64,000 nucleotides of DNA from Psammoneis japonica (lineage: Eukaryota). Positions 31,763-64,000 of this stretch are shown piece after piece. The notes under the pieces were generated by a model, which saw nothing but the letters and a program-made list of their open reading frames with translations, searched no databases and was not told where the DNA came from. Both the position numbers and the translations under genes were made by a program. How positions within the stretch are numbered: the first letter of the stretch is position 1; each line of letters starts with the position of its first letter. Location: contig QPGO01000276.1 of assembly GCA_008632985.1 (NCBI GenBank), forward strand, positions 1 through 64,000. Direction: 5' to 3'.

Positions 31763-31888
31763 CCTGGCAAAGAAACAAAAAACCTGTGACAGCCCATTTC
31801 CAAATTGTCTTGTGCACATGGCGCAAGCTGAAGCTCTGGCAAAGAAACAAAAACCTTGCAACAGCCCATTTCCAAAATGTCTTGTGCA
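31763..31888 (+). repeat. Direct repeat of ~55 bp x2
   Basis: ctggcaaagaaacaaaaa..cagcccatttccaaa.tgtcttgtgcaca twice; the copies differ by gTGac versus gCAac. Confidence 0.85.
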
Positions 31889-38216: not shown

Positions 38217-38765
38217 GTTCAAGACGCACAGTAAGCAATGTGACCAAGAGAATGATTCGTAAAGTTGGGTTTGAACAAGCGTCTTCTGCGGGGAATTGTT
38301 ATAACATGAAGTAAAAATTATTTGTGAGTTCTTTTCTTCCTCCAACTAGCTCCAATGTCGCTCGAATATTCCTCTTGTAGGAACAGCCGAAATGCTTCAG
38401 CTTCAGAATCCGGCAAAGACTTTCGATGGTTGCCGAGGGTTCTTGGGTGCTGCTGTTCACGCAAGATTCGTGCTGCATCAGGTGTTGCAGAAACTCCTTG
38501 TCCTCTGAGGACATGAGTGACTCATCCAGCTTCTTGATTTTTTGGCTGAGATACATGGCTCTTTTCTCGCTTGCGCTTCTTCGATTTATTTCTCTGCTTC
38601 TGTGATGTGGCACTTTTCTTCATCTGAGATTTGGCATGTGATTGACAATGAGATTTCAGTGCACTGCTGGGTTTGACACACAAAAGCAGCCAATGTGTCC
38701 ACAAGTCCTGTGTTTCCAGCCCACCGGATCTCACATGAACCTCAACTCTCGTTCAGCGGTCCACT
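37978..38765 (+). repeat. Segmental duplication, copy A (RPA1 3' end plus 3' end of a convergent gene)
   Basis: Colinear with about 43812-44656, e.g. ttgctcagttttaagttcaag and ttgcagaaactccttgtcctctgaggacatgagtgactc. Confidence 0.9.
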
Positions 38766-40520
38766 TTCTGGCAACACTTGGAGAGTCAATGGGCAGGGGC
38801 AACCGCAGTGCACCATGGAGGAGATCCTGCATGGCAACATCAAAGGAGGCTGACACTGCCAGTGCTGCAGGTTGTCACAAGCTTTCCAAAGAAAGTTGTG
38901 GTGCCAGTCTTGGCACCAATGATCACATTGGTGACAGCATCAGTGCAGTCAACAACGAGGGGGCGGTGCAGTCAATGAAGCAGCCACAAGAATGCAGTGG
39001 CTGACCAATGTGAAGTTGGTGCAGATGGTCATGTCAGAAACAGAATCTCAACCAATGGTGTGGATGATGCAATCAATGAAGCCAGAAGCAGCCACAGTGC
39101 AACAGCTGATTGTAAGATCAAGGTGGTGCACATGATCAGGTTTTGGCAGCAGCAACACAGTCAATGGCACAAACAGTGCTGCAGTCAATGAACTAGAAGT
39201 GGCCCCAGCCCCAGTGATGAGCAGTGCAAAAGATTGCTGGAAAAGGCTTTTGTCTCAGGGAAGAAGAAATGGAGCATCTGCTGAGAGGCAGCAGCATCGG
39301 TGCTGAGCTCTCAGACTCACACATCACTCAATGTGACGTTGACAGTGGCACAAACAGCTTCATGAGAAGCACTCCTCTTGTGACAAAATAAAATCAAAAG
39401 CAGCCCTTGCGTGCAAGAACATTCACAAAGTGCGCACTCTGGCAATTTGTCAGAATGACAAATGCTTGTCTGAAGCAAAAAAAGTCAAAGTTGTCACTGT
39501 GGTGCTGAAACTTGCACACAGAAAACCACACTTGACATCTTCATTGTGCCAGGAGTTGGAGCTAGCCTGGGGCAAAGAGAACAGCTGTTGTCAGCAGTGA
39601 TTCCAACAGGCTTCAAAAAGACACATGTGCAAGTGTGCGGCTGCAAGCCTTTTGACTCGACCACCCCTTGCAAGCCCACCTCATGGATCCAAGCCATTTG
39701 GAGTTGCCGACACGTGCTGACCAGCAAATTTGCTGCCAGCGCAGACAAGCAGACAGCCTCAAATGCAGCTGTGACAGAATCAGCAAATGGCAGGCAACAC
39801 ATCTGAGTGCCAGAGCCTCTGCCAACAAGTTGAGACAGCAGAAAAAAGGCACTGGCTGAAGGGCGCAGCAGCATTTCTTGCAAAGGTCAGAGACACAAAA
39901 TGAAAAACAGCACCTGGCACAGCAGCACACTGTGCTGCACTGGCAGAGAACTGGGCAGCCTTTGGGAAGATGCCACGTGGGTGCAACCATGCTGGAGATG
40001 ACCTCAGAGCAGCAGGCTCTGATGCTGCAAAGCAAAAATGGAAGAGGGACTTTGGGTCAGGGGCAACAGTGCTGGTGCCAACCCTGAGTCTCTCCAGCTT
40101 GGCAACAACAGCTTTGAGAACCCACAGTTTAAAAAAAAATCCACAGTTGCTTGTCGCACTTAGAGCAGAGGGCAGTTGCCACTGCCAATGTGCCACCTCT
40201 AGGCTGCTCCAGCATTGCAGACTGTCACCACGTGCTCTCCACTGCTGCCAACTGGGGTGCAGCACCCATGTCAATGCTGCCGACCACCACAATGCCACCA
40301 GCCACAAAGTTCCAGACATGATGCCGCCGAATGCACAAAATGCAGCCGACTGCAAGGCCGCTTGCGCTTGTCTCCGACGCGACAGTGAGCGACGCCACAT
40401 GGCGCCGACTGCGGCTCAACGCTGGTCTTTCGCAGACGAGTGAGCATGGCATGCAGGCAGCAAAAATAATGTCCATGCGTGCGTCGCACTGGCAGAGTGC
40501 CAATGGCAGACAGAGCGGCA
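38400..40520. other. TpA/CpG-depleted domain 4, unidentified degenerate insertion
   Basis: TA nearly absent. Homology to the 44-kb copy stops at about 38765. No recognisable protein. Confidence 0.7.
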
Positions 40521-42472: not shown

Positions 42473-42940
42473 CGCCATTTTTTGTCTATTTGAAATTTTT
42501 AAATAGAGAATTTCAACGGAAAAAATAACGTTCTGGACCAAGTTCAGACATGATGATTTTTCCTCGCTCATTTTACTGTACAGAAAGCTTACAGCATTGG
42601 ATGACAAAATTTCTTTACTATGGAGTAAATTAAATTTCATCATACTGAATAGGTGTGTAAAATTTTATCCTTAAGCATGACGTAGAGAACAATCTTAGTC
42701 TTGAGAAAATGAACTGGCGGGCTCATGCTGACTCACGCCATTTTTTACGTCTATCCATAATTTCTAAATAGAGAATCTCAACGGAAAAAACAACGTTCTG
42801 ACCAAGTTCAGACATGAGGATTTTAAATTAAATTTCATCATACTGGATATGGTGTATAAATTTGATCCTTAAGCATGACGTAGAGAACAATCTTAGCATT
42901 GAGAAAATCGAACTGGCGGGCGGGCTCATGCTGACTCACG
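42473..42940 (+). repeat. AT-rich tandem duplication (~265 bp plus ~205-bp internally deleted copy)
   Basis: cgccattttt..aaatagagaat..ccaagttcagacatga..ccttaagcatgacgtagagaacaatcttag..gggctcatgctgactcacg occurs twice. Confidence 0.9.
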
Positions 42941-43811
42941 GTGTTTTTTTCAGCATTGCATGACAGCGCACCGTGCAGTCCTCGAAGAGAAACACACTGT
43001 CCGAAGAAAGCACTGTGCGTTTGGCGACATTGTAGCTTTTGAAGCTAAAAAAGAGGCACAGAGACACTTTCAAACTTCGTCGCGTCCATCGGTCCAAGCA
43101 CCTGCCAGCAGGGCCAAGTGTCTTGAACAAAGCCACCGACAAAGCTGCAAAATTTAGTGGCTGACAGCTTTGACTGAGGAGACGGCGTCACCAGTCCATT
43201 GCTGCAGCAAAATGGAAAAAATTCTCTCAGTTTACTCACGTGTGTTGGTGCCAACACCATCATTTTGCTCAGGAGGCTCAAGTGTGTCCATGGAGAGTTT
43301 TGGCAGGAACGACAGCGCACACCGTGCCACAGTCTTGAAGAAATGTTTGTGCGCCAGAGGGGCAGCACAATTTGATTGGGGGGCAATTTAAAAATGTGGG
43401 CCCATCTCTCATTTTTCCACGCAGGTTTTGGGTTCATTGCATTTTGGCTTCTGTCGCATTCAATGGGGGCAGTCACACCAGCTTGGCTCACCCACAGTGC
43501 AGGCCCTATGTCTGAAATGCGGGTCAATGACTTTGCCCCGATTTTCGCTGTTGCGGGTCTGTTGTTTGTTCCTGCCTTCCCCCCCTCTCCCCAGTCTGTC
43601 CATTGTCATGTTTCCATTTTCTCACCTCCATTTTAAATTGTTGGCAAATGTCAAATTAAACAGCTGTCTGTTGCCATGCGTTTGCACACCACAAATCCAG
43701 GTTTTCGACTTCTTCCTTGCTGTCTTCCTCTGTCTGCATCTGATTGCCCTCTCCTTCTTGGTTCTCTTCTTTGCTGTCCATGCGTTGCTTGAACCAAACT
43801 TTGTCGCATGT

Positions 43812-44036
43812 GCTCTTTCAGGGTGCCTTGGTGGACGAGGCACACAAGAAAGCCATGGACAAGAACAGAGCCAGGGCAGCTTTGACTCACACTTTTTGCT
43901 TGGGCGGTTGGCATGGATTGGATGCTCAAGTGAGAGACAAAATGCAAACCAAGACAAGTGTTGTCGCTGTGCTGTGACCTGCAGATCATGCCAAGGAGGG
44001 GGCAAAGAAATGCTTGAAGCTGTTGCTCAGTTTTAA
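43812..44036 (+). pseudogene. RPA1: RPA1 3' fragment (duplication copy B), hypermutated
   Basis: Encodes DKMQTKTSVVAV..KEMLEAVAQF versus DEMRTKTSVVAM..KEMLAAIAQF in copy A. Confidence 0.85.
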
Positions 44037-44223
44037 GTTCAAGGCGTGCAGTCAGCAATGTGACCAAGAGAACAATTTGTAAAGTTGAGTTTGAAAAAGC
44101 ATCTTCTGCGGGGAAGTGAAATAAAACACGAAGTCAAAATGCATGCAAGAAATCTTTTCTTCCTCCAACTAGCTCCAGAGGGCTTGTCAATTTATTTCAT
44201 CTGCATGTGCACTGTCAAACACA

Positions 44224-45750
44224 TCATTCAACGTCGCTCGAAAATTCCTCTTGCAGGAACAGCCAAAATGTTTCATCTTCAGAATCCGGTGAGGGTTTTT
44301 CGGTGGTTGCCAAGGGTTCTTGGGTCGTGCTGCTGTCCATGCAAGATTCGTGCTGCATCAGGCATTGCAGAAACTCCTTGTCCTCTGAGGACATGAGTGA
44401 CTCGTCCAGCTCCTTTACTTCATTTGGCTGAAATAAAAGTGAACAGCTTTTTTTCTCGCTTTTGCTTCTTTGACTTGTTTTTCTGCTTCTTTGGCATGGC
44501 ACGTTTCTTCATCTGAGATTTGGCATGTGATTGACAATGAGTTTTCAGTGCACTGCTGCTTTTTGACACACGAAAGCAGCCAATGCATCCACAGGTCCTG
44601 TGCTTCCAGCCCACTGAATTGCGCATGAACCTCAATTCTCGTTCAGCAGTCCACTTGCGCTCAAACAAGGCCTTCCAATCTGCCTTTGATGCCTCAACAG
44701 CCCTGGATCATCTCTCACAAGGCCAAATCATTTGTTGCGCAAATTTCTCCACATGACAGGATCCTTCGAGAGTTCATTCCATGCCTTGCAGATGCCGCTC
44801 ATTCAAACAAGCTGTTTGCATCCCAAGAAGGAAAAAAGTGGTGAAGGACATTGCCGTGGAGACAGTCTCTGACAGGAACATCGACAATGCGCTCATCTTT
44901 TTGTTTGGTTGTTGGAGGCACATTGCGTTGAATGTTTGGCTGATCTGCGCTGTCATCCTTCTCTTCCAATCATTTCAAAGAAGTGAGCAAGCATTTGTGA
45001 CCTGTGCAAGGGCCCATTTGTTCATGAGCACTCCGCAGACCAATCAATTTGGGAAATGGCCAGTTTGTCCCACTGCGAATCGTCAGAACACTTTCACTCC
45101 CACCAGCCACCGCACTCAGCTCCGCAGATGATTCTGCCGAGACATTGTCATTGTCATGAATGGCATCAAAAAAGCTCAAAATGCCTGAAAGCTGCAAGGC
45201 GTGACCAATTTCATCCAACTCGTCTTGGCTCATTCCGTGCAAAAGCCACATGTCAGGAGAATCGCAGAGAATGGACAGCTGCCCAATGAATTCCTTGAAC
45301 AGCCCCTTGTCTCAAGAAATGTTGGAAAACACGTCTCGTCAATGACAAAGAATGTACGAAAGGCATCAAAGCAACGGTCTCATCAACTCATCTTCACACA
45401 TCCTTTTGGCATCATCATCAACCATCTGATTGTTTTCACCTTTCTGCAGCTCCCCACAGGAGACAGCAAGAGCGCGCTTTCTCAAGGGCTGAAGTGACTT
45501 CCAGAGCATTGCTGGGTTGTCAAAGAAACTGCACTTGGCAAGTGGCTCAGAATTCATGCGCAACACAAGCTCTGCATTGGAAATGCCGGCTTTTCCCAGT
45601 TTGTCAGATTTCGAACACGATGCGCAACACAACCAGATGCGATTCATGAGCAAGTCACAGCCTTCCGTTCCAAGTGTGTCGGCAAACAACACTGATGACA
45701 GCCAGAGAGCCGTGCGCAATTCTAGAGTTGCTTCGCTGATTAAGGGGGGT
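44224..45750 (-). pseudogene. Unidentified degenerate gene convergent with the RPA1 fragment
   Basis: Chain of minus-strand ORFs (45366-45719, 44774-44956, 44420-44668, 44224-44502). Its 3' part is duplicated at 38.3-38.77 kb (LDESLMSSEDKEFLQ). Confidence 0.4.
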
Positions 45751-46189
45751 CATTTGCTGCTTTTTTTAGCTCGAATTCGACCGAATGGCTTGTGATTTGC
45801 ATGATTTTTCCTGATTTTCACCGTGCTTCACCGTGGTGAAAACAACAAGCCATGAGTTTGTGACGGAGGTGGTCTGTCTATCAACTCTCGTTTGTTTTAT
45901 GTTCGTTGTGTGTCAAAGGTCATGCATGCATCAAATGTTTGTGGATGGACCACTGCATTTTTGAGCTGTGTTGACATTGCCGTCATCGTCGTGCTTCGAT
46001 CACGGTGCCTGATGTTCTCATTTCATGCGCGATCGGGGGTGAATCTAGTGCATCGCAAACTTTCTGAGTGCACTCTTGCATCCACTCGTGCCTCTCTGGA
46101 GTCCTCAACTCTTCTCACGCACCTCAACACCGCTCGTCTTGGTGATGGCACCTGGAAAGGCTCCACCCATGCCTTCACACTTCATTGGC

Positions 46190-46899
46190 AGGACCAACTT
46201 TGCAAGCACGAAGCTCTCATTCCAGACACGGACCGCTTCTCTGGTCAGAAACGTGTCATGCTCAAAAACACCATTCACCCTGTTGAAGAACTCCATTCGG
46301 TCAAGAATCAGGCAGACCAGTTTCATGTGCAGAATGGCACTGGCCTCTCATGCGAGCAATGCTGTGGGCTCCTGCTTTCTGCAGTGGCACAGTGCAACAG
46401 TGCATTCACCCCCAAGACGGTCCCACGCGCTCCGCGTCATGCCATCTGCGAACATGACCTGGCCCCCGACAACCCTGATGACGATGTGTTCTTCGACATT
46501 GACAGTGATGTTGATGTCATCCAAGCTCATGCCACACAGACTTGAAGGACCAACTTTGCAAGTGTGAAGCTCTCATTCCGGACATGGACCGCTTCTCTGA
46601 TGGTCAGAAATGCGTCATGCTCGAAAACGCCATTCACCCTGTTGAAGAACTCCATTCGGTCAAGAATCAGGCAGACCAGTTTTGTGCGCAGAATGGCACC
46701 AACCTCTCATGCGAGCAATGCTGTGGGCTCCTGCTTTCTGCAGTGCCACAGCGCAACAGTGCGTTCACCCCCAAGATGGCTTCCTGCACTCTGCATCGCG
46801 CCATCCATGAACATGACCTGGCTCCCACAGACCCTGATGACAATGTGTTCTTTGACATGGACAGTGATGTTGATGTCATCCAAGCTTGTGCTGCACAGA
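46190..46899 (+). repeat. ~357-bp tandem duplication in gag
   Basis: aggaccaactttgcaag...catccaagct at about 46190-46540 and 46547-46899. Confidence 0.9.
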
Positions 46900-47844
46900 C
46901 TCGTGACAACTCCCTCACCAGGGAACAATGGCGTTGCATTCCACCGGACCATCAGCGCATCTGGGATGCTCTGCCTCAGTCCACCAAAGCCATCATCCTT
47001 GGATCACGCACTGCTCATGCTGGCAACCACCATGACTCAACGGCCATCAATTTGCATGACCTCCATCTTGGCAGTGATGGCGACGTCAACTTGTCGGCCA
47101 ATGCTCACAACCTTGAGCCAGCCCCCGCAGCTTCCAACGTCGCAGCTGATCTGGCCGATGCTAATCCCATCCTGGCTCACCTCACCAAATGCAAGCCTTT
47201 GCCTCCCGGTGATCTGCAGCGGCTCCTTGCACCTGAACGGCCCTCTTTGGCTTGCTCTGGTGAGAAACCTCCCGGGTCTGCGTCTTCCCGCAACACAGAC
47301 ACTGACATTGAGATCAACGGTCACACTCACCGTCGTGTCAACAATCACAATGTCATCTGTTCCACCTTGACTCACAAATCGACTTGCAAGGTTGCTCTCA
47401 TTGATTGCAGCACAAACGGAGGCATTGCCGGCAAAGATGTTTGCGTCATTGCCTGCACTGATCATCAAGTTGATGCACAGGGTGTCGACAACCATCAGCT
47501 TGTCAACATTCCCATTGTCACTGTGGGCGGTGTCATCCACACCCAACATGGACCCATCATTGCCATCCTCCACCAGCGCGCCTGCACTGGCAAAGGCAAG
47601 ACCATTCACTCATGTGGCCAGCTCGAGTGGCACAAGCACGACGTCAATGATTGGTCCATCAAGGTCCCCAACGGCCTGCAGCGCATCACCACCATCAATG
47701 GTTGCATCATTCCCATCAACATCAAAGGCAGCTTGCCCTGCATTGCCATGCACCCGCACACTGACGCCAAATGGGACAACTTGCCACATGTCATCCTCAC
47801 TGGCGATGACACCTGGGATCCATCTGCACTTGACCACCAGTTCA

Positions 47845-48002
47845 CTGATGACAACACCTGGTGCGATGCCATCTCTGACCTCCAGGATGACCCTGCCACC
47901 ACTCTCTTTGATGAGTTTGGCAACTGATGACAACACCTGGTGCGATGCCATCTCTGACCTCCAGGATGACCCTGCCACCACTCTCTTTGACAAGTTTGGC
48001 AA
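47845..48002 (+). repeat. 79-bp tandem duplication inside the copia element
   Basis: Units start at 47845 and 47924 and are identical except gaTGag versus gaCAag. Confidence 0.95.
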
Positions 48003-51000
48003 CTGTTGTCATTGCCATGTCGTGAACAACGCAATGCTTGTGGACCACCTGCTTGACGACCACATCCTGCCGACATCTGATTTCTTCTACAAGTGCCATG
48101 AACGTGACATCCAGCCACAGGACCCTGACTGCAAGTCATTGCGTCCTCACTTTGGCTTCCTCCTGAAGGACACCATCCACCGCACGTTCGATTGCATGAC
48201 CCAGCATGCCTGCATGCCAGTCAGCATGCACTTGAAAAAGGCATGCAAGTCACCCAACCCAGTGCTCAACGTCCATTGCTGCAACAAACCTGTTGCCACT
48301 GACACAGTCCACTCTGACACTCCTGCAATTGATCCCGCATGCATCAGAGCACAGTTCTTTGTTGGCACCGAATCTCTCGTCACCAATGTGCATGGCACCA
48401 AGACCAACAAAGAATTTGTCAACACCCTTGAAGACAACATTTGCAACTCCACAGTGCTCTGTCCAAACTCATCAGCGATTGTGCCCAAGTCGAAATCAGC
48501 AACAAGGTGCTTGGCATTCTCCCCGCCCTCTTCATCTCCAGTTGGCAAAGCCAGCCTCATCAACAGCACCAGAACTTCACTGAACATTGCTGCCAAACCA
48601 TCAAGAACATGGCCAACATCATCATGGATTGCTTCAGCTCACCGGCTTGCACATGGCTTGTTGCCCTCATGTGCGTGTGTTTTCTGCTGAATCACACCAC
48701 CTCTGCCAAGCTCCACTGGCGCACCCCAACTGATGTGCTGACCAGATCTGCTCCCAACATCAGCCCCCTCCTCCATTTTCACTGGTGGGAACCGGTGTGC
48801 TGCCATTTGGACGACTCCGACTGGCCCTCCGAATCCCGTGAACTGCGTGGTCACTTCGTTGGCATCGCTGAACACGTTGGCCACCACATGACCTTCAAGA
48901 TTCTTTCCAACGACACCCAGAAGATTCTTCACTGGTCAAATGTACGTTCTGCTGCCAGCACGCCCTCAAAGTGCAACTTGTGTCTTGATCCTCCTGATGG
49001 GGAGACTGCTGCACCCATCATCAAATCCCGCCATGACTCTGAAGATCCACCAAATTCATCAGATGGGGAGAAGATCAGGATGCCCAAGATGCCAGTCTTC
49101 AACCCCGAGGACATCATTGGATGCACCTTCCTCATGAAGCCACAAGAAGATGGACAGCACTGCCAAGCTTGCATCGTCAAAGCTGTCGAAGACCACAACT
49201 GGGAGATTGGCGACAACCCAGAGCTCATCCAGTTCATCTGCTCCGTCAACAACAACAAGTGTGAAGAAGTCCTTGCCTGCAACTGCATCATCAACCACAC
49301 AGAGCAAGGGGAAGATGACACCACTGTGTGGAAATTTTGACGCATCGCATTGCATGAAGGACCATTGAGGCCTCACGACCCCTCATGGAAAGGCTCAAGC
49401 TACAATGCAGTGCTCAAGTGGGAAAGTGGGGAGATCATGTCTGAGCCCCTGGCCATCATTGCCAAGGACAACCCTGCAACCTGCGCCATCTGCAAACATG
49501 AACATGGCCTTCTCAAAACCAATGGATGGAAGTGCTTCCAGAAGACAGCTCTCTGTGCCAGAAGAAGCTCTTTTGCATGGCCAACCAAGCCAAGCTTTGC
49601 TCCTTTCATGTGGCCCCACGTCACAAGTGCGGATGCGAAGTGCCCCGTGACTGCAGGCACACTTTTGCTCTTGACAAGTGCAATTGCAACCGCAAGTGGG
49701 GAGATGCAACAGACCTTGAGATGAATCAACTCAACAAATGTGAGGTCTTCCACAACTGTGGGCACTGCAAGGAATCCAGTGCGCCACCCAGACACAAGAA
49801 GATCCGCGTGCACCTGGTGTGCGATGTCAAACATGATGGCAGACACAAGGCTCGCCTTGTTGCCAATGGGCATCTCACCAACACACCCATTGACAGTGTG
49901 TGCTCTGGTGCAGTGTCTCTGTGTGGCCTCCAAATGATGATCTTCCTGGCTGAACTCAACAAGCCAGAGACATGGGCCACCAACATTGGCGATGCCCATT
50001 TGGAAGCTGCGACCAAGGAGAAGCCACACATTGGCCTTTGCCATGAAGGACCCACAGACCTTCGTTGACACTCTCATGGAGAAGCACAAGTTCAAGCTAA
50101 AAGGCACTGGCCCTCTGCAGTTTCACCTTGGCTGTGACTTCTGCTGTGACTCTGACAGCACACTTTGCACGGCCCCTCGCAAGTGCATCAAACGCATGGT
50201 TGAGAATCATGCACAACTGTTTGGGGAGAAGCCTTGCACCAATGCATTGTCACCACTCGAGAAAGGAGACCATCCCAAGCTGGACACCTCCGAACTGTCA
50301 GAACCCAAAGGTGTTCAACACTTCCAGTCTCTCATTGGGTCTTTGCAGTGGGCCGCATCCCTTGGGCGCATTGACATCACCACAGCCATCATGTCCCCAT
50401 CCAGCTTCCATGCCGCACCCCGTCAAGGCCATTTGGACCGTGCCAAGCGTGTCTGCAGTTTCCTGTCTAAGATGCGACATGGTGTCTCATGAGTGCACAC
50501 CAAGGAACCCGACTGTTTGGACCTTCCCAAGCCTGTGCACGGCAATGTGAAGGAACTGATCCTAGAAGACGCACCTCAGCCCCTTGGCAAATTCATCACC
50601 ACCACACATTGTGTTGATGCGAACTTGTTTCACTGCATGCTCACTGAGCACTCTGTCACGGGCATCCTTCACATCCTCAACAAGTTCCCGGCTGACTGGT
50701 TCTCCAAGAAACAAGCTGCGGTTGAGACCGCAACTTGTGGGTCTGAATTTGTTGCCACCAGGACTTGTGCAGAGCAAATCATTGATCTGCACACCACGCT
50801 GCATCACCTTGGGGTTCCGATTCATGACCAATGTCACATGTTCAGGGACAACAAGTCAGTTGTTGACAGCACCACCATCCCGCACTCCAAGTTACACAAG
50901 CGACACACCACCCTCTTGTTCCACCGTGTGTGTGAGGTGATTGCCTCCAGTTTCCTCAGGTTCCACTTTGTCAAAGGTTCTTGCAACCCCACTGACGTCC

Positions 51001-51411
51001 TCAGCAAACACTGGGGATGCTCCCAGATTTGGAACCTCCTTGGCCCTCTAATGTTTTGGAACTTTGATTCCGAGGCCTTCAGTGATTCTGACTTTGAATC
51101 GGTTGCTGTGGACTCTTCAAGCAAACTGGGGAGTGACAGAATTTGAACAAGATTTTAGTTTGTCACACACAATCATGTGTGCTCTTAGTTCTGCGTGCAG
51201 TGCGCAATGCAGTTTGCTTTTGAGCCACTTGGCTCACAAGAATGATGACAGCAGCACCGATGTCACAACAACAGTCTTTCGGCTCCTGCAATGGTCTCTG
51301 CATGGAGACTCATCTGCCATTTAGACAGCAGCAAGGAGTCATTGTTTTCTTCCACCCAGTCATCTTTAATTTCTGTCAGATTGCAAGGGGCCGGGAGCAG
51401 TTTGTTGGCAT

Positions 51412-51413
<2 letters not shown>

Positions 51414-51446
<33 letters not shown>
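51414..51446 (+). repeat. (CT)n microsatellite
   Basis: Directly visible. Confidence 0.9.
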
Positions 51447-51449
<3 letters not shown>

Positions 51450-52034
51450 AAAAGGGTGTGTGTTGGCTAGATGTTGCTTCTTTCTCAAAAACTGCACCAT
51501 GTGGAAAAGAAGTGAGGAGTCTGTGTCAATGTTTGGTCCATTCTACATGAGGTGGGTGTCCACCTTTCATGGTGTTGTGACTGGGACAGATGAAATGTTG
51601 CTTGGAAGGGCCTGGGTGTGTGTGGATGGATGGGTGGATGGATGGGTTTGCAATTTACAAAGTTCAGAGCACAAGGAGCAAAGTGACACAATTGTCAAGT
51701 GAACGGTGCTTGCTGGCTTCAATTGACAGCCACACCCTCAAGGTGAGACCCCAGATGGGACTCTGATGCATGTTGAAAACTCCTGGTTGTGGCACATGGC
51801 CACAGAGCTCTGCAGTGTGTGAGCAGCTGCTCAATGCATGGGGAGCATGCGGGCAGCAGCTGGGTCAAGCTCAGCAAAGTGCGCCCCAAATGGTGTGGAG
51901 TGTGCATGCATTTTTCTCTCCAGCTCTGCATTTTTTAGCTCTTTCACAATTCCACTTTCCCCACCCAACAATGAAATTGACTGTTTCTTCAAATGCAAAC
52001 ACCCCGCCTTGAGAGGAGCTTGTCTGGATCTGCC

Positions 52035-53250
52035 TCACTTCCATGGCAGAGCCTGTAGAATCTGGGCGGTTCCAATGCACAGCAAATCCCCGTCGCCAAA
52101 CTCATCTGTGATTGTAAAGGAACAGAGGGTGCCTGGAATGGTGGACACTGTAAAGGTGCACAACTCACCAGCATTGGCAATGGTCCAAGGAAAAATGTCC
52201 ACCAAGACGCTGCCATTGCACACCAGACAAAAACCCATTTTGGAAGGAACAGCATCCAACATGATTTCACCACAAACAGTGTGGGCATTGGATGTGGCGA
52301 TGCTGGTTTGAGCATTGGACGGGAGATCTCCATGGTGGGTGCTGCTGAGCCGCAATCCACACAAGCCATGGTTGATGCGGTCGGGCTTGACGTGGTTGGC
52401 ATCATGGCGGGAGACCTTGTTGGCGACTCTGTCCATGGTGCCTCTGCAATGAAATCAACCACTTGTTCTTTGGCAAATGTTCCATTTCCACGAATCAAAG
52501 AATTGCCTGGACGAGAACAATTTGTGCCACAATGAACATGACAAAAACTGCCAGCATCCATTCTGTCTTGGCCCATGTCAGAAAAGGCAAAGGTGCAGGC
52601 CAGCCCGGCCTGTGCGGAAAGCGGCGCTGTGACCAAATGATTTGGCAATCCCCGACAGACTCTGGCGGGAACATTGGCAATGTTTGTTCCCTTGCAGTCC
52701 AGTTTCCATCCAGTCTCTTGTGGTTTGCTGTCCAACTGAATCACCACTGAAAGCAACTCGCAGCTTGTCGGTGCCATGGTTGTTGTCGGCATTGGAGATG
52801 GAACTGGGGAAGTTGACGTAGCTGCAGTTGGAGTGGCAGCTTTTGTTCCTGCTGCTGAGTCATTGTTGCTGCTTTTCATGGTCATTGGAACCACGACACC
52901 AATCGCAATGCCGGCCACAAGCAGTGCAATGAGAAGAATCCCCAAATGACACTTCCAGGGCTTGATCGGGACTGCATCTTCTGCACACAGAAGATTCTTG
53001 TTTTCATCTTCCTCTGGAGAGACAATGCAAGCTTCTAGAATCACATCATGCCCATTGGAGTGTCCACAATTGTCCCCATTTGCAAGCTGTGGTGCAGTTG
53101 ATGACTCTGGTCATGTGACTGAATGCTTGGAACTGCCGGGCTCTGTAATGCGCGCAACCCCCGGGAGAGATGATGCTTGTTCCTTTTGGCTTTTTTTGCT
53201 TTCTGCTGTTCAAATCAACAACAACATGACCTGCTGCTGCTCGATTCTTG
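52035..53250 (-). pseudogene. Single-pass membrane protein with Pro/Thr stalk and two extracellular repeats, hypermutated
   Basis: TM segment LGILLIALLVAGIAIGVVV. Two repeats: IQLDSKPQETGW..CTFAFSDMGQD and IMLDAVPSKMGF..CSFTITDEFGDG. Frameshifted; 5' end uncertain. Confidence 0.55.
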
Positions 53251-53549
53251 CAGCTTTCATTGTCTTTTTGCCTCATTGAATCGACTGCAAGACAAAGGTG
53301 TCTTTTGTTGTGCAGCAGCATCTTCTTGAGCAGAGGATTCTGAGCTCGTTGGAGGGAGAGGCGACTCTTTGGGCTCCATGATGTCTGCTTCCACAATGAC
53401 GCGTCAGCAATTTTGTGGTCAGACAAAAATTCTTTTGTTGCAAAAAGAGAACAGCAACAGCCAAGAAGTGACTTTCAGGGTGTCATGTCATGCTTTGAAA
53501 TTTTTAGTTTTTGATCACAAACCAGGAAAGCCCATGTGCAGAAATGGAG

Positions 53550-54800
53550 TTGAGGGGGGGAGCAGCAAGAGGTTGCATGGGATGGGCTCTGCGAGAGCAG
53601 GAGGAAAAAAGGGGCTTGCGTGACAGCATGAGGGATGAAGAGAAGAAGGAGTGAGGAGAGTCGGAGATGGGAGGGAGGAAAGGAAGTGGAATGATGGACA
53701 ATGTTGCAGGCAAGGGTTTGGACAGCCCATTGAGAAGGGGTGGCAGAGCAACAGGTGCTGCCAAAGCGGTCGGAAGCAAGCTGGCACCAAGCAAAGTGTC
53801 AGAGGCTGGAAAGAGGGCGGAAGGAGAAGTGAGAGCACAGGAGAAGGCATCGAAGGATGCAGGGGAATGAAGGAAGGAGGAAGGGTCAGGCCAGGGAGCT
53901 TTGGGCTGGGTGCAGAAGGATGAGGATGAGGAGCCAAAGAGAAAGCAATGAAAGAAGAAACCAAGGCTGCCAAGATGGTCAAGGGCAAAAGGAAGGAGAA
54001 AGCCTCCAGCAGCGTTGAGGGCTTGGACAGCAAGGGGACCATCGGAGGTGCAAGAAGAAGGGCCCAAAAACTTGGATCTTGCACTCGCATGGTGTGCCTC
54101 AGCAAGGACAGGAGAAGAAGGGGTGGGCAGGCCAGGAGGAGGGCAGGGGGGGAACTTTTGGAATGGTGACATCAACAGCAATGCATCGATGTTGGGAAGG
54201 AGCAGAGAGGGATGCAGGAGGAGGGATGGCGGTGCCTGCATCAGCTGGGCAAAGGAGAGGCCGATGGGGGGGGGAGGTTGGTGGGCTTGAGATGAACGTC
54301 ATGAGAAGAATGACAGAACTTGGAAAGAGGAGCAAGGGTGTGCGCGACAATGAAGAGAGTGTCGCGGATGCTGTTGGAAAGCTTGGACTTGTGATTGCCC
54401 TTGCAAGCAAAGGCATGATCACCGAAGGCATCTAAAGCAGCATGGCCGCAGGAACAAGGAGAACCAACAAGGGAGGAAGGGATGACAGGGAGGCGAAGCT
54501 TGCGTTGAACAGCCACAGTGTACGCATCGGAGGCAAGGCGCGAGGTGGGAAGCGCCGAGAAAGAGCATGAAGCGAGAGACTGGTGAGAGGCGAAAGGAGG
54601 GAAGGAAGGGCAATTTGAACTTTGGAGGGGGCAGCGGCAAGGGCGGAAGAGAGGATGCGTTGTTGATGAGCATGGTAGAGGCGACGGGCCAGGCCTGTAG
54701 AGCGTGGCGGTCTTGACCAGGGCCGAAAGCGAAGGAGGGGCCGAGGAAGAATCGGAAGAGAGAGCAGAGGCAAAGGAACGGAAGATAGAGTAGAGTCGCC
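53550..54800 (-). mobile_element. 5'-truncated non-LTR retrotransposon with restriction-like endonuclease (CRE/R2-type)
   Basis: QRKLRLP..CSCG..LDAFGDHAFAC..SIRDTL zinc knuckle, then LCPAD..IAVDVT (PD-D/ExK nuclease; family RPAD) and FLLPFALDHLGSLG, across frameshifts. Confidence 0.75.
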
Positions 54801-54912
54801 ATCTCAGACCTTCAAGCCTACGTCGACTTTCATTCCCTGCAGCATGTGCCGTACTCGGCAAATCGAACAAAGTACATGTATGAACATCCCACGTTCAATG
54901 TAAAAGTCTTTG

Positions 54913-55850
54913 ATGAAGGATTTAAATGGTGGAGGTGAAAGTGATTACGAACGATTAGCGAAGAAAAGGATTGCCTTTATGTCGCAGCAGCGATCCACCA
55001 CTAGCTGCGTGGTTTCTGCTGCTGCTAGTTGGACGGATGATGACGACGAAGCGTTAAAGTCACTGGAAGACACGTTGAGGATGCGACTGCAATTCAAGTA
55101 CGGGAACTTTCAACTGAGTATCCGTAACCGTTTAACACCAAACGAGTTTGAAACATTCCGTCATATGTTGGATTAAGTGGAAGTCGAGTTGGGGAACCTC
55201 TCAATCCAAACGATGAAGAGGCAAAGCGGCTGCAGAAGGAATTGGACAAATGGGACAAATGGTGCAAGAAAATTCTGCATCCATCATCAAGACGAATGGA
55301 CCGTGTGGACCGTAGGAAGAAAGCTCTTGAGATGGACCACCACATCATGTACAGTCGTGTCCGTATCAAGAAGGGAAAGACGGCCCATATTAACCTCAGC
55401 AATACCGATGCTTCATCCATTATTTTCACCGGAGGAATTGACTACGAATGGTTCAATGGATACCGTTTCATGATTTTACCCGATGGTCACGGTGGCACCG
55501 ATTGCGAGGCAGGCGTCGGTGATGAAGAACGATTTGCGTACTGTTATGATCGGGATGACCTTGTCATGTTATGCTCGGCCTGTGGCAAGGATGCAACCAA
55601 ACGGTGTTCACGGTGTAGCTGTCAATGGTATTGTTCGAAGGAATGTTTGATGCAGCACTGGCCGGTCCATAAGAAACTATGTGGCAAGAACAAACCGACA
55701 TTGAGTCAGAATCAAATCAACTGTTTGAAAGGCTTCCATGACGCTCAAGCTATGCTGTTGTCAGGGTACACGAACGCCTCCAAGATTGACGCTATCATAC
55801 AGACGATGACGTCCAGGCATTCAAAAGTGCGTTCATCGACAAATCGCTGA
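54913..55850 (+). CDS. MYND zinc-finger protein; one apparent frameshift
   Basis: CSACGKDATKRCSRCSCQWYCSKECLMQHWPVHKKLC. Adding one G at ttggatta (~55170) joins ORF 54910-55176 to the MYND frame. Start uncertain. Confidence 0.75.
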
Positions 55851-56070
55851 TGAATTCAACGAATTTTTGGAATCCATAGGTACATCTTCTTGATCAATGA
55901 ATTAATCATATTTTCGCAACCCTAAACCACAATTTTCTCTGGGATTCTGGGATGTTATTGAAAAGCGGATACTGACACTGCCTATACCATGGCGGTCTAT
56001 CGATAAAGATGGGGATATACAGTGAGAATAGATTCGAGGAACCATCGCCTTGTAGGATTTTACCCATGCA

Positions 56071-57605
56071 TTAGTTAGCTCGTGCAAAAGACACCGCGTC
56101 GGCTTCTCGTAGAACTGAGAGAACTTGATCATGGACTTGCTTGTTACTACACAGCATATTTCTGGTTTCAAGACAGAATGGCGATCCATCCAAGTCCGTG
56201 ACAATGCCACCCGCCTCGTCAATCAAGAGTGCCCCAGCAACAAGGTCCCAGCTTGACAAATCATAACCAAAATGTGCCGTCAAACGACCGGCTGCCATCC
56301 ACGCCGTTGTCAGTGCCGAGCAAGCAATCACACGCAATCCCCGAGACACGCCGTTCAGCGCCATCATGCCGCGCATGGAGGTTTCAAACGCATTTGGGTC
56401 TGCGGGGCAACCCGCATTGATGAGAGCATCACCAATTTCTGTAATGGCCTGCGCAACCTGTATCTGCTCGCCATCCATAAAGGCGCCTTGACCCTTGATT
56501 GCCGTGAACATTTCATCGGCATGGGGATCATAAACGACGCCTACAATTGGGACACCTTTATATACGACACCCATGGTTACGGCAGACAAGGCCAATCCAG
56601 AAGCAAAGTTTGCTGTCCCGTCAATAGGGTCAACAATCCAGATGAAACCAGAAGGAGAAGATTCTAGTGCATTTGTAAGAGCCGCTTCACTCGCAGCTGC
56701 ACCGGGGTCCACATCTTCTTCTCCCAAAAAGCTGTGCTCGGGAAACTTGGATCGGACAATGTCCTCCACTATGGTTTGCGCATTCTTGTCGTATTCAGTC
56801 ACAATGTCTTTGATGCTGGTTTTGATTTTAGATTCATCTGACATTTCAGAACAGCATCCCGTGTTGGATCGAATCACCTTTCCAGCCTCTCGAGCCGCCT
56901 CCACGGCCGTTGACAATATCAATTCCAATCGTCCTTGGAGAGTTCCTTCCAGGCGTTTTCGTCAATTGCTGACGACTTTTTCCTGCTCTCTTTCGCAACT
57001 ATACTGTCTTTTTCTTTCTCTTCTTCTTGTTGTAGTTTAATAAAAGCGTCCTCCCACTCGGTAAAGGTGCGAGTGACCACAAACTCTTCAATCTTGAACT
57101 CGTCATTGAGTCGAAACCGCGTTTGACCTTCCACCGCCATGGGAGTATTCTTTGGAGCAATGCCACAACTCGTTCCAGTCCATGTTCCGGTTTCATACCA
57201 ATGCGCCACAACCCAATCGCCTCGTTGACCGCATTCTGGACCGTAATGAAATTTAACGACGCAATCCGGGTGAGCCGTGACAAAATCCATGCACCGATCC
57301 ACCAAATCCTGTGCCTTGACAGTGCGTTTGCTATCGTTGATTCCACAAACGTCGCGAATTGTTGCCTCTTGAGCAAAACAATCAAGAATCATTTCTGGAT
57401 CTTGTTGATTGACTCCCTCAAAGTACTGCTGAACAACAGTCTCCATGGCTGCTTTTGTTTCTTGATCGGAAAGAGTAGTAGAAGAAAAAAGACTCATTCT
57501 GTTGGTGTTTGTGTCACATCGAACTTTATTGAGTCCCACTATGCTAAAGGCGCTTGACCTCGATTAAAGAGACGCCAGTATAATGAGCTTGCTCTTTAGC
57601 ATCAT
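56071..57605 (-). CDS. Putative plastid-targeted SnoaL/NTF2-like + inositol monophosphatase fusion, disrupted as assembled
   Basis: IMPase motifs DIVTEYD, FLGEE, WIVDPIDGTANF and WDLVAG. SnoaL-like VQQYFEGVNQQD..DCFAQEA. One added T near 56928 joins the ORFs. Leader MMLKSKLIILASL*SRSSAF is in frame, with TAA at 57566-57564. Confidence 0.8.
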
Positions 57606-58079
57606 TGTCACACTACAACTCAAAGAAATAATGACAGCCGTCGACGTGTGTTGTCGGAGGGAGTTCCCGAGATTGAATCGGATTAGTCGGGAATCCCGTA
57701 GAAGATCTTAGAGGACGAAGAAGTTCGAAGAACAGCAAGACTCAGAAGACATTTGACAAGATTGAATTTAGACAGAACAGATCAGAAAGATCATAATTTT
57801 AGAAAAGCAAAAGTTTACAGAGAGACAGAATACGTACAGCCCTTGAAGCCCTCGAACATACTTCGAAGTATAATAGGCGAAGGCCCAAGAGGCTGGGAGA
57901 CTAGAGAGACACTTGAGTGTTAAGTAAGATGGAGATTGCAGGAGAGAAATCGGTGCGCTTACCAAGCTTTGATGGTGAGCATAAGAACTTTCAGATCTGA
58001 TGGATGAGGATGCTTGCGCATGCTAGTGTGTGCGGATTTGCGCAGGCAATGAACAAGACAGTTGAAGCAGCGGACTTGC

Positions 58080-60711
58080 GGCAAAGATTTCATGCTCGTG
58101 GCTGGTTAACGACAAGCCCATGACCCAATCTCTTTGTCTGACTTCGAGCCAAAGTGTTAGTGTAAATCGTTAAGTGTCATTTCCACTTCGACACAAAGAA
58201 AGCTAAATGGTTAGCGTAAATCGTTAAGTGTCATTTCCACTTCGACACAAAGACAGCTAAATGCTTAACGGCAGTGGTCAGATTTCAAAATCTGAGCAAT
58301 ACAGAAATGTCAATGATGAATTAGGATTTTTGATTGCATCTGCCGTAAATGTCATTACGCCAATTGCACTAATGAATACACAAATGAATTTGTATTCCAT
58401 CCTTTTCCTGAACTTTGATCTATCGGCATTTTCGATACGAGTACGCGATGACAACAATAAGGCATGCTTGTGTGTGTCATGGCCATAAGCTGTGAGGCGT
58501 ACCATCACATTTGGATTGAACTCGGGGATCTTGATGTCGAAAGTAGCCATTTGTTTGACATTCGTGATTTTTCATCGCCCACAAACTGGGATTTCAACTG
58601 AGTCGAGTTGATGTTGGACGTGTTTCAAAGCACTGCATTTGATGAAACAATTGAGGGCTCTGGAATTATGGCATTTTATGCCATGGAGACTTAAAACAGT
58701 AAATGGGTTGACAATCAAGCAGTGATCGGGTTTGCCAACATTTCCAAAAATGTGACAACAAAAATTGCATCACTCAACAACCAACAACATCTCAAGAGAT
58801 AGAAACAAGAAAAGTGACTCCTCTTTGCACTTGAATTAAAAGAGACAACAATGCACAACAAACATTTGAGAAGGACAAGAAGCTCTTGAATGCATGGAAC
58901 AAGAAGAGAGTCAATGAATCGCTCTTGCTTCGAACCTCATGACCTGTTCTCTCCATGATGGTGGTTGGCTGAAAGTTTGGTGGTGGTTTTTTATGTGACT
59001 TGCAGCTTGAGGCATGTTGATGCATGAACACATGGCCCATGTGTGGTGTCACCTTTGGAATGTGCCACTTGTGGAGTTTGAGTGGACAACTCTCTGTGCT
59101 CAACCTTTGTCCGCCAAATGCTCCGTCAAAGTCCAGATGCTGCCCCATCCCACCCGACCATTGACACAAAACAGTTCTTGCAAAATGTTGTTGCCTGTTT
59201 CCCTCTTCCTCTGCAGAGCAGCTCTCTTGGTGACAGTGCTGCCCACATACCAGAATGTGCTCAAGAATGCTTTCCATTTTGCCAGCCAAGACACCCAACT
59301 CGGGGCTGTGTGGGCTCGAATCTCTCTCAAGACAAGCTGACATTTGTGCCTGGCACTGGTGGCAACGCTGAGCCCTCCTTCCTGTTTGACTTCCCAGGAG
59401 TGTGCCCAGACCTCCTGCATGCTGGGTGGCTCAACCACAAGAGTTGCTGTCTTTGTTGGTTTTGTCAGCAGGATGTGCCAAGGCTGCTCTGGCCATGTGT
59501 GCACGCCTGGCTGGCACCACAAGTCCCGGTGCAAGGACAGCTCCGACAGCACTTTCTGCTGTCAGCAAAGAGTGTGAGCTGGCTGGACTGCCAAACCCCA
59601 CACTTCACAGCTCCTTGGCAGTCACTCCAAATCAAGTGCCAACTTGGGGTCAACTGCACCTGGCTGGCTGCAATGCAAAGACAGCTGTGGCAGCACTTTG
59701 TGACAAAAAAGAGAGTGTGAGCTGGCTGGGCTCCCAACCCCACACTTCACAGCCCCTCAGCACTGGCTCCCAATCAAATGCCAGCTTGGGGCCAATGGCT
59801 GCAAAGCCATTGTTGCAAATCCCTGTGCCTGCTCCCTCACACAGCTGTGCACAGGGTCAACATGTGTGGCCTTTGCAAGATGGGCCCCTGGCTGGCTGCT
59901 GACTCCTCAGCCACGGCTTGCAACAAGCCACCACAACACAGAGCATTGTGGGGTGAGTGCAGCACAGCTTGAACAAGCAAACCATGCTGAGATCACCCAG
60001 AGTTGGCTGCTGTCCTGGGGCTCCATTCAAAGCTGAGCTGGGCTGCTTGGCTCCTTGGTGTGCAGCACATGCTTGGCATCACATTCTTGTCGCCAAGCAG
60101 CCACATGGCATGTGCCCACCATTTGTGCCTGCAACAGTGACCCCAGCCACAAAGAAGCCAACAAAAAGTTGAACCTGTTTTTGTGGTTGAAGAGTGAAGA
60201 AACAGTGAGCAAAGTTTGGTTCAAGATTTGTTGGCAATGCCAAGTGCTGGGCAACCAAAAAGAGGTGCCAAAAATGGCTGTTCTCACTCATTTCTCAAGA
60301 GGAGCTTGCACTCATGATGCAGGGTCTGAAGCAAGCACCAGTCAAGATGACAGTTTTTTCTCTCTGCTCCACTTAAAACACAGCCTTTGAGTCAATGTGG
60401 TGCTCTTTCAACAACTCACGCACACTGGGAGGAGCAGCTGGAGCCAGGGCAGCTGGCCTGGCAGGGCTTGGATGACACCCAAGCTGGGCTGCTCAGCCTG
60501 GTGGCACACACTCAGCGCCACATTGTTGCCCTCCTGCAGCCCGCAATGTGCCCCACTCTTGGCACCTGCAGCAACCACCCTGGACCAAAAGAAGCCAGCG
60601 CAACTCTGGCCATGGTTGCATGGTCAATTGTGTGTGTGTGTGTGTTCAACGGTTGATTCCCCTCTTTTTTTCTCTTTTCCTTTAACCGGCCACGAACATG
60701 AAAAAATTGCC
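58080..60711. mobile_element. Non-autonomous TIR DNA transposon (2632 bp) with 8-bp TSD, nested in copia gag
   Basis: Left end ggcaaagatttcatgctcgtggctggttaa; right end reverse complement ggcaattttttcatgttcgtggccggttaa. TSD ggacttgc at 58072-58079 and 60712-60719. Removal restores the gag frame (VEAADLPDAE). Confidence 0.9.
58157..58263 (+). repeat. ~53-bp tandem repeat x2 (subterminal in the TIR element)
   Basis: gttag(t/c)gtaaatcgttaagtgtcatttccacttcgacacaaaga.agctaaatg twice. Confidence 0.9.
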
Positions 60712-63700: not shown

Positions 63701-64000
63701 ACATGATGAAATGGACAAGACCCGAGATTCTCAATGCAGTGAGAGAGCCATCAAGGCACATGAGTGGTGCTGTGAGAGCTCACATGGCTGCAATGAAGTG
63801 GGTGATGCGATGCTGTGTGAGAACACCGAAGAGAGGATTGTTGTTGAAACCAAATGCCAAGTGGAGCAGAGCCAAGGAGCATGAATTTGTCATTGTGGGC
63901 AAAAGTGATTCAGAGTGTGCAAAAGATCAGGAGACGAGGCACAGTGTGAATGATTGGAGCATGCATCTACACGAGGTGCCCATTTCGATGCGAAGCAAAA
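58700..64000. other. TpA-depleted hypermutated domain 6
   Basis: About nine TA by eye in 60.7-64.0 kb. The 355-aa gag/protease ORF 60820-61887 has no Tyr. Confidence 0.85.

Follow-up and report, generated by a model that had tools for sequence, protein, structure and literature searches.

In the chlorarachniophyte Bigelowiella natans, mutation-accumulation lines have uncovered a hypermutation that acts on the dinucleotide TpA. Among 302 nuclear point mutations reported for these lines, 231 lay in an integrated giant virus and a virophage, and 230 of the 231 were A-to-G or T-to-C changes, all of them on TpA, at a TpA rate of about 6e-7 per site per generation that was seen in some lines only (bioRxiv 10.64898/2026.01.13.699255). 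The same preprint, dated 2026-04-14, describes 124 clusters that are poor in TpA and rich in CpA plus TpG, reports that TpA-poor coding sequences are enriched for reverse transcriptase (RT) and DDE domains, and proposes an ADAT2-like DNA adenine deaminase as the agent (Mettrop et al.); its text makes no mention of diatoms. Here we analyze a stretch of 64,000 bases from the diatom Psammoneis japonica (contig QPGO01000276.1, positions 1 to 64,000; hereafter the window), in which two separate dinucleotide-specific decay processes have altered intergenic domains that bear copia-type long terminal repeat (LTR) retrotransposons and other repeats. One process acts on TpA and the other on CpG. The TpA process is the faster of the two and nearly saturating; it gives TpG or CpA on either strand and erases tyrosine (Tyr) codons together with the stop codons TAA and TAG.

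A full-text literature search found no description of TpA hypermutation in diatoms or other stramenopiles. In two papers on diatom transposons (PMC2806351 and 10.1101/2025.10.24.684338), dinucleotides, hypermutation, deamination and repeat-induced point mutation (RIP) go unmentioned, and TpA is likewise absent from the second. A first-pass annotation of the window had proposed a candidate undescribed genome-defence system. The word undescribed holds for diatoms within the reach of our search, but not in general, because the signature had already been reported in B. natans.

TpA loss and CpG decay in the depleted domains

Dinucleotide observed/expected (o/e) ratios were scanned in 1-kb steps across the window, and domains were segmented by TA count. 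The window as a whole holds 1130 TA, against 4070 expected from its base composition, and the 1-kb steps alternate between two states, with TA o/e of 0.02-0.13 in one and 0.44-0.76 in the other. Seven TA-poor domains (Table 1) account for 34,750 of the 64,000 bases (54%) and have TA o/e of 0.05-0.11, CG of 0.16-0.63, and TG and CA of 1.44-1.91, whereas five gene islands have TA o/e of 0.51-0.60 and CG of 0.84-1.07. The stretch 26251-28750 is intermediate (TA o/e 0.20), and the positions of single TA place the edges of the main domain near 42,900-43,030 and 54,700-54,790. Only 156 TA are present in the poor domains, where about 1270 would be expected at the gene-island rate. Tyr makes up 7 of 11,257 residues in the stop-to-stop open reading frames (ORFs) of at least 150 amino acids that lie in these domains, compared with 165 of 12,095 elsewhere. 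GC content is unchanged (depleted domains 0.47-0.51, islands 0.46-0.51), and plots of GC content therefore miss the mark. The first-pass annotation had described multi-kilobase domains, poor in TA and rich in TG and CA, that cover more than half of the window and alternate with normal gene islands; the ratios computed here bear this out, except that the domains number seven rather than six.

The direction of the change was read from the dead copia-type element of the main domain. A column was taken as conserved when 30 or more intact homologues covered it and 70% or more of them shared one residue, and the conserved columns were tallied codon by codon. The element keeps 589 of 793 such columns, Tyr and arginine (Arg) included. 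Tyr is kept at only 1 of 40, with Cys (TGY, Y being a pyrimidine) at 22, His (CAY) at 12, Arg (CGC) at 2, Phe at 2 and Trp at 1. Other non-Arg columns are kept at 571 of 697 (Fisher p 3e-26 against the Tyr loss), and every residue type other than Tyr and Arg is kept at 66-100%. In the changed Tyr codons (n = 38), the sense-strand A was altered in 24 and the sense-strand T in 14, and this excess of Cys-type over His-type changes is not significant (p 0.14). Adenines at second codon positions without a preceding T had become G at 2 of 214 sites, compared with 24 of 40 at TpA (p 7e-21); Asp-to-Gly was found at 1 of 65 and Asn-to-Ser at 1 of 24, and His-to-Arg, Gln-to-Arg, Lys-to-Arg and Glu-to-Gly together at 0 of 125. 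All five Val-to-Ala codons read GCA, that is, they come from GTA, and of the 126 retained codons that begin with A, 1 stands after a T and 91 after a C. The change is T:A to C:G, is specific to TpA and occurs on both strands. The annotation's claim of an A:T-to-G:C change on TpA of both strands is thus upheld by the near-intact 214 other adenines and by the 24 + 14 split, and the tabulation against homologues places the enrichment at TpA over other adenine sites, as it had anticipated. Its protein-level observations were also reproduced. The copia ORFs at 46515-47927 (0 of 470 residues), 48432-49340 (0 of 302) and 60820-61887 (0 of 355) are free of Tyr, and all six altered motifs are present: VCDVKHDG at 49817, VCSG at 49898, DAHLEA at 49991, CVDA at 50610, TCGSEF at 50733 and ICGLKQ at 63235.

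Three known sources of biased substitution were rejected. An error-prone Pol-eta-like polymerase, which the annotation had offered as one candidate, would mutate WA to WG (W being A or T), yet adenines after A were changed at only 1 of 65 sites (Lys-to-Arg 0 of 41, Asn-to-Ser 1 of 24), whereas 24 of 40 were changed at TpA. GC-biased gene conversion fails on the other adenines (2 of 214) and on the unchanged GC content. Fungal RIP fails because TpA is lost here, not gained, with His-to-Tyr at 0 of 30 and Gln-to-stop at 0 of 21, and because GC is not lowered.

CpG to TpG/CpA decay is active in the same domains, a second process that the first-pass annotation had missed. Arg is kept at 17 of 56 conserved columns of the same element, with Cys at 20, His at 13, Gln at 3, and Trp, Pro and a stop codon at 1 each. 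All 40 of the 40 first-position G-to-A changes follow a C, the Thr-to-Met codons read ATG and the Ala-to-Val codons read GTG. From gene islands to poor domains, the frequency of TA changes by -0.032 and that of CG by -0.032, while TG gains 0.034 and CA 0.028, and the sum of the pyrimidine-purine steps stays nearly level (0.2397 in the poor domains and 0.2421 in the islands). Because gains and losses balance in this way, about half of the TG/CA excess derives from TA and half from CG, and the GC content is unchanged because the GC gained by the TpA process cancels the GC lost by CpG decay. The annotation had held that neither RIP nor deamination of 5-methylcytosine (5mC) explains the domains. 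The first half of that statement stands and 5mC deamination cannot remove TA, but CpG decay does supply about half of the TG/CA excess. In the window, the TpA process is the more complete of the two: 97% of TA sites and about 70% of CpG sites have been lost in one element.

The TA-poor state of the element is not an ancestral composition. Tyr makes up 2.9% or more of each of 120 intact homologues (median 4.0%), and 80 environmental (metagenome) loci have a median TA o/e of 0.66 and CG o/e of 0.68, with TA o/e of at least 0.44 in 78 of the 80. With intact relatives at about 4% Tyr and a TA o/e of about 0.66, the present state must reflect decay; the TA frequency of the element is 0.0023, compared with 0.049 in the environmental relatives. 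Three metagenome loci separate the two processes. L016 (TA o/e 0.06) keeps Tyr at 0 of 9 columns and Arg at 13 of 15, and L013 (TA o/e 0.33) keeps Tyr at 15 of 25, with 2 Cys and 6 His among the replacements, and Arg at 29 of 31; L013 represents an intermediate stage of the TpA process. The opposite holds for L069, in which Tyr is kept at 34 of 36 columns and Arg at 29 of 54. Among the environmental copia relatives, CpG decay alone is common and TpA erasure is rare. Five loci (L069, L018, L014, L008 and L068) have a CpG o/e of 0.12-0.22 together with a TA o/e of 0.44-0.52.

The 156 surviving TA of the poor domains lie mostly in YTAR, R being a purine (TTAA 27, CTAG 23, CTAA 18, TTAG 17). Relative to the gene islands, survival is 0.04 for TAT, 0.08 for TAC, 0.21 for TAG and 0.19 for TAA, so that TA before a pyrimidine is affected about three times more strongly than TA before a purine. 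By class, survival rises from 0.026 in RTAY through 0.070 in mixed contexts to 0.308 in YTAR; on a log scale the mixed class (-2.66) nearly matches the average of the other two (-2.41), and the effects of the two strands are thus nearly additive. Independent strand-wise events, in which A before a pyrimidine changes about three times faster, would give such near-additivity. The same rule can be stated as a preference for T after a purine, and sequence cannot separate the two descriptions.

Site of action and recovery from other sequence data

Several indirect lines of evidence favor action in the chromosome over action during retrotransposition. Both strands are affected, and TA depletion is 91-97% complete. 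In a pair of diverged repeats (Table 1), 8 TA of the copy beside a gene, which straddles a domain boundary, stand opposite CA or TG in the copy within the main domain, and the reverse occurs 0 times; for CG aligned to TG or CA, the counts are 21 and 6. The boundary of depletion falls inside the former copy at about 38,380, and another lies at about 58,750, 683 bases into a high-copy 2.6-kb insertion. The second copia element, which this insertion interrupts, is undepleted at its presumed 5' end beside a SnoaL-like gene (TA o/e 0.71) and has TA o/e of 0.02-0.06 in its remaining part. Within the 359-bp tandem duplication of the dead element, one ancestral Tyr codon has become CAC (46207) in one unit and TGT (46563) in the other, and some changes must therefore be later than the duplication. 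Other genomic copies, compared at the 40 listed of 1225 variant places, carry TA at 2 and CG at 6 places where the window has TG or CA, and the opposite TG/CA outcome at 3. The double differences of CA against TG between copies (9 and 6) were set aside as proof of a TA ancestor, since a CG ancestor yields the same pattern.

The depleted sequence was recovered from a public run, X1, in which single-copy words have a depth of about 30-40 and which contains 82% of the sampled words of 48001-58000. X1 contigs cover 42867-43591, 43734-44393, 44512-45769, 53351-55924 and 60685-61653 with 0 differences and 0 gaps, and the fourth of these spans the right edge of the main domain. A further contig over 51457-52402 has 0 other letters and 1 gap. 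Runs X2 and X3 contain next to none of the stretch, and no RNA data set was listed as containing it. These matches indicate that the depleted sequence is no error private to this assembly, and the exact recovery of 31-letter words at such depth suggests that X1 consists of accurate, polymerase-read data. Copies of the same kind also occur among independent public proteins and metagenome contigs. Tyr is at most 0.7% in 7 of 150 representative homologues of the RNase H piece (median 3.6%), and the low-Tyr public homologues read ETATCGSEF or ETA(T)HGSEF where the intact ones read ETATYGSEF.

Elements, repeats and host genes of the window

The features of the window are collected in Table 1. When 120 intact polyproteins, including named Nitzschia inconspicua entries, were used as tblastn queries, the window was matched at 45.5-51.5 kb only, apart from low-complexity matches in the PT-repeat gene described below. 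The RT stretch with YVDD that is present in intact relatives was not seen in the open frames of the dead element. Pfam (E 0.01 or better) gave no match for ORFs 46542-47927, 47392-48690 and 48441-49340, and among 123 ORFs of the depleted domains it recognized only copia gag/RT, besides weak matches at chance level. In the second element, zf-CCHC (1.7e-07), RVT_2 (4e-15) and, weakly, Retrotran_gag_2 were matched. Loss of TAA and TAG has left long overlapping open frames on both strands, which include many of the 79 ORFs of at least 150 amino acids and are often stacked two or three deep. With stop codons erased and transposon proteins hidden from profiles, repeats will be under-called and genes over-called in such DNA.

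Table 1. Coordinates of the depleted domains, elements and repeats in the window
Feature	Coordinates	Strand	Remarks
TA-poor domain	1-6000		TA o/e 0.09, CG 0.20; only recognized content is a diverged NUDIX-like ORF, 385-1119 (-)
TA-poor domain	17001-20000		TA o/e 0.11, CG 0.63; adjoins AlgH-like (DUF179) host gene
TA-poor domain	23001-26250		TA o/e 0.09, CG 0.16
TA-poor domain	28751-32500		TA o/e 0.05, CG 0.51
Repeat copy, sister of 43812-44656, across island/domain boundary	37978-38766	+	gene-side half keeps TA, far half TA-poor
TA-poor domain	38501-40500		TA o/e 0.09, CG 0.32
TA-poor domain (main)	43251-54750		TA 46 (o/e 0.07), CG 0.43, TG 1.64, CA 1.65
Repeat copy inside main domain	43812-44656	+	75% alike to 37978-38766
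Dead copia-type (CoDi-like) LTR retrotransposon body, gag to RNase H	45856-51146	+	three frames; tblastn of intact polyproteins
359-bp tandem duplication inside gag	46190-46901	+	2 copies, 87% alike; 39 transitions and 5 transversions between copies
Probable 5' end (gag start) of second copia	57767-58067	+	TA o/e 0.71, not depleted; adjoins SnoaL-like gene
High-copy 2.6-kb insertion in second copia	58068-60710		flanks share word CGGACTTGC; depth at joint about 5,600-8,000
TA-poor domain	58751-64000		TA o/e 0.05, CG 0.34
Second copia-type element, runs off window	60711-64000	+	TA o/e 0.02-0.06; ORFs 0-0.3% Tyr

Depth in X1, summed over similar contigs, runs to thousands for 45.3-52.0 kb and 58.0-60.7 kb, which marks both as high-copy families; over the dead copia element it is 1,400-70,000. 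One X1 contig lacks one of the 359-bp units and joins 46484 to 46853. A shorter tandem duplication in the same element, of 79 bp at 47844-48005 (2.1 copies, 97% identity), is TA-free in both units and is therefore younger than most of the hypermutation. An 831-bp X1 contig links 58067 straight to 60711, and by our own reading the frame upstream of the insertion probably resembles a gag N-terminus. The first 683 bases of the insertion have a TA o/e of 0.47 and the remainder 0.00-0.09. The stretch 58009-58750 is itself high-copy (X1 summed depth about 6,000), has normal TA and CG, and contains a 54-bp tandem duplication at 58156-58267. Repeats, or parts of repeats, can thus escape depletion directly beside depleted DNA of the same insertion.

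The gene islands contain genes for DUF389, helicase-associated (HA) domain, RPA-like, BTB, zf-MYND, inositol monophosphatase (IMPase) and SnoaL-like proteins and a large PT-repeat protein. The best named relatives of the IMPase gene, which lies in a neighboring island, are from Fistulifera solaris and Amphora (65% identity), a result from which the host was placed among the raphid pennate diatoms, as distinct from these two. Genes with Pfam domains fall outside the depleted DNA, and both copia elements, the 2.6-kb repeat and one repeat pair lie within it, which agrees in part with the earlier claim that the change is confined to transposon-bearing domains.

Two genes lie in or against depleted DNA. 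The NUDIX (MutT-like) ORF 385-1119 on the minus strand has its best match at E 3e-45, with 49% identity to diatom proteins. It has no Tyr, reads KET instead of its relatives' EET in the NUDIX box, and has a local TA o/e of 0.25. It keeps 71 of 96 conserved columns, none of which is a Tyr column, with mixed changes that include many transversions, and may be a decaying paralogue. The AlgH-like (DUF179) gene at 18384-19700 (+) has a recognizable domain at 19011-19175. Its presumed upstream exon, 18384-18761, contains no Tyr, lies in TA-poor DNA with nearly normal CG (o/e 0.5-0.6), and gave no match to a Pfam family (E 0.01 or better) or to a PDB chain; here the TpA process may have extended into a host gene.

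At 7589-13155 (+), very large ORFs with matches to PT-repeat (E 1e-36) and DUF7507, and with internal repeats of about 2.7 kb that are 95% alike, probably form the gene of a repetitive secreted or cell-surface protein; GG o/e is just 0.3-0.4 across 8-12 kb. Three HA domains (E 4e-59) were matched in ORF 34243-35526 (-), which also repeats a 250-bp segment internally (35016-35523), and no helicase domain was found in the same frame. The sole ambiguous base of the window is a single N at position 1560.

Candidate mechanisms and comparison with known systems

We attribute the TpA loss, with a probability of roughly 0.6, to an enzyme-driven T:A-to-C:G mutator that acts in situ and within limited regions; the enzyme is putative, and adenine deamination is our guess at its reaction. 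Such a mutator would work on chromosomal DNA in place and over repeated rounds, with a reach that may be set by a chromatin-defined region ending short of active genes. Its role would be a RIP-like disabling of selfish DNA, and it could be a further instance of the TpA-only hypermutation that arises in the silent integrated viruses of B. natans. As to the chemistry, adenine after T might be deaminated to inosine, which is read as G, by a DNA-acting deaminase of the TadA/ADAT fold. A34, the natural target of TadA and ADAT2-ADAT3, follows the invariant U33 and thus stands in a UA context. This assignment is a guess, a lead and not a fit. An enzyme of this kind with a TA preference would be of interest for base editing.

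Several observations weigh against this reading, or against parts of it. TpA is its own reverse complement, which leaves A and T indistinguishable as the attacked base, and the 24 Cys-type and 14 His-type changes of the Tyr codons (p 0.14) show no clear agreement with the context rule for single strands. The amphioxus enzyme BjADAT2, the one eukaryotic ADAT2 shown to edit DNA, deaminates both A and C but is reported to prefer GAA (for A) and TCG (for C), not TA (PMC10354150). A search for the LTR pair of the copia element at 45.8-51.2 kb came up empty, also after reduction to a purine/pyrimidine alphabet: local alignment of 44.3-46.3 with 50.9-53.2 kb scored 30, within the 21-30 of shuffles, and a 30-mer self-comparison of the window in the same alphabet returned nothing beyond short repeats, the 38-kb/44-kb pair and the two tandem duplications. 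Of the TG/CA steps in the half of that pair that lies away from the gene, 61 are shared and 4 swapped, so that part of the depletion there may be older than the repeat duplication, unless these sites had never been TA. A recognizable transposon protein is missing from about two thirds of the depleted DNA, and the description transposon-rich is established for 45.3-52.0 kb, 58.0-64 kb and a single pair of repeats only. Finally, X1 may derive from the window's own sample, and its library type is unrecorded.

Because of the TpA palindrome, the data suit T as the target as well as A. In silenced repeats, a TET/JBP-type dioxygenase might oxidize T at TpA to 5-hydroxymethyluracil (5hmU) or 5-formyluracil (5fU), with T-to-C arising by mispairing or misrepair. 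A dinoflagellate TET/JBP enzyme, from within the stramenopile-alveolate-Rhizaria group, is reported to make 5hmU that marks and silences transposons, and older work on C. cohnii is cited for a preferential replacement of T in TA and TC (PMC11572971); base-resolution mapping in Breviolum minutum is reported to have shown no sequence preference (PMC11071213). In the window, TC contexts show no loss: 85-93% of the Phe, Ser and Leu columns are retained. We also know of no strong T-to-C mutagenicity of 5hmU opposite A, which counts against this route, and we consider thymine oxidation unlikely. Editing coupled to retrotransposition, in which RNA or cDNA of the element is deaminated by an APOBEC3- or ADAR-like enzyme and the mutated copy integrates while the chromosome is untouched, would explain why the identified targets are LTR retrotransposons and why hypermutated copies of one family are numerous (4120 X1 contigs at 80% likeness or more for long reads, or at least 85%, of which 1181 are less than 90% alike), and the TG/CA shared in part of the repeat pair fits the copying of a mutated template. 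The same hypothesis would have to place changes on both strands (24 and 14 at Tyr codons) and remove 97% of sites, which is hardly achievable in one cycle; the boundaries lie inside repeat copies and track the distance from genes, and most depleted DNA is without retroelement genes. ADAR editing favors a 3' G, yet TAG, the expected favorite, is among the most resistant contexts, with TAG and TAA surviving about 3-5 times better than TAC and TAT. The B. natans analogue, moreover, arises in place in silent single-copy integrated viruses. We regard editing during retrotransposition as very improbable.

A dedicated enzyme might be dispensable if replication or repair in heterochromatin were biased by context and slowly removed TpA, for example through biased gene conversion, a skew in mismatch repair or a lesion specific to TpA. 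The gene islands themselves are short of TA (o/e 0.51-0.60), and the slow CpG decay implies that the domains are old and silenced. Gene conversion, however, is not TpA-specific, whereas other adenines changed at 2 of 214 sites; TA loss outruns CpG decay in the same element (97% and about 70% of sites); TpA loss is absent from most CpG-decayed environmental relatives, with TA o/e of 0.44 or more in 78 of 80 loci; and in B. natans the reported rate is about 1000-fold above background and switched on only in some lines. A passive bias thus appears improbable to us. The first-pass annotation had itself raised the concern that modified bases in repeats are misread as G or C, and the platforms of the assembly and of X1 are unrecorded. 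Contigs built from 31-letter words at a depth of about 30-40 match the depleted sequence exactly, and unrelated public protein sets also contain copies with Tyr changed to Cys or His, as do two metagenome contigs. Copies disagree among themselves on the TG or CA outcome, some Tyr codons read CGC with both bases changed, and a strand-symmetric miscall should also create CG, yet CG is depleted. A sequencing or assembly artefact can be given almost no weight.

A wider form of the deaminase reading holds that diatoms and chlorarachniophytes share an old, dedicated defence, in which a chromatin-guided DNA deaminase converts A after T to inosine in silenced selfish DNA, as a mirror image of RIP. We put this forward tentatively, at less than even odds. 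If true, the enzyme would be a naturally occurring adenine editor that is specific to TpA in chromosomal DNA and has, in this diatom, reached saturation across more than half of the 64 kb, and switch-like activity would explain why the mark is found in only some lineages and copies. The findings point to a widespread, overlooked way for protists to disable selfish DNA. Comparative genomics could reveal the enzyme among deaminase or dioxygenase genes that are common to carriers and absent where copia keeps its TA.

Among described systems, RIP of ascomycetes resembles the present case in making dinucleotide-specific transitions in place and on both strands, which disable repeats and transposons, in leaving multi-kilobase compositional domains between normal genes, and in making transposon proteins hard to recognize. 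RIP, however, changes C to T mainly at CpA, creates TpA and lowers GC, whereas here TpA is destroyed and GC stays constant. 5mC deamination corresponds to the second process of the window, in which Arg CGN becomes TGY or CAY/CAR; it cannot remove TpA, is slower here, and acts alone in most environmental relatives. ADAR and APOBEC3 share with the diatom case the restriction of retroelements by deaminase hypermutation, and ADARs also prefer U before the edited A (Discussion, bioRxiv 10.64898/2026.01.13.699255). They differ in acting on RNA or cDNA and on one strand, whereas the changes described here are on both strands, have positional boundaries and show a 3' preference unlike that of ADAR.

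The closest likeness is to B. natans. In the reported data, the change is likewise T:A to C:G exclusively at TpA, with TpG or CpA arising according to strand. It forms multi-kilobase clusters, in foreign or selfish DNA there and at least in part also here; it couples TpA loss to a gain of CpA plus TpG, includes RT and DDE-type sequences among the TpA-poor ones, and has an ADAT2-like candidate enzyme. The host there is a chlorarachniophyte (Rhizaria) and here a diatom (stramenopile), and the reported targets there are viruses, whereas here they are copia LTR retrotransposons and repeats. TA o/e is 0.45 for the B. natans virus but 0.02-0.11, near saturation, in the window. CpG decay accompanies the process in the diatom window, and TA before a pyrimidine is preferred over TA before a purine here, a preference for which the main text of the preprint contains no counterpart. 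De novo events were observed in B. natans, whereas the window is read in its end state alone. The diatom case adds a new major lineage for TpA hypermutation, with retrotransposon targets, near saturation and a measurable secondary context. TpA-directed hypermutation would thereby be known from two lineages, of which the diatom would be the first stramenopile, and the case here is far more complete than that of B. natans.

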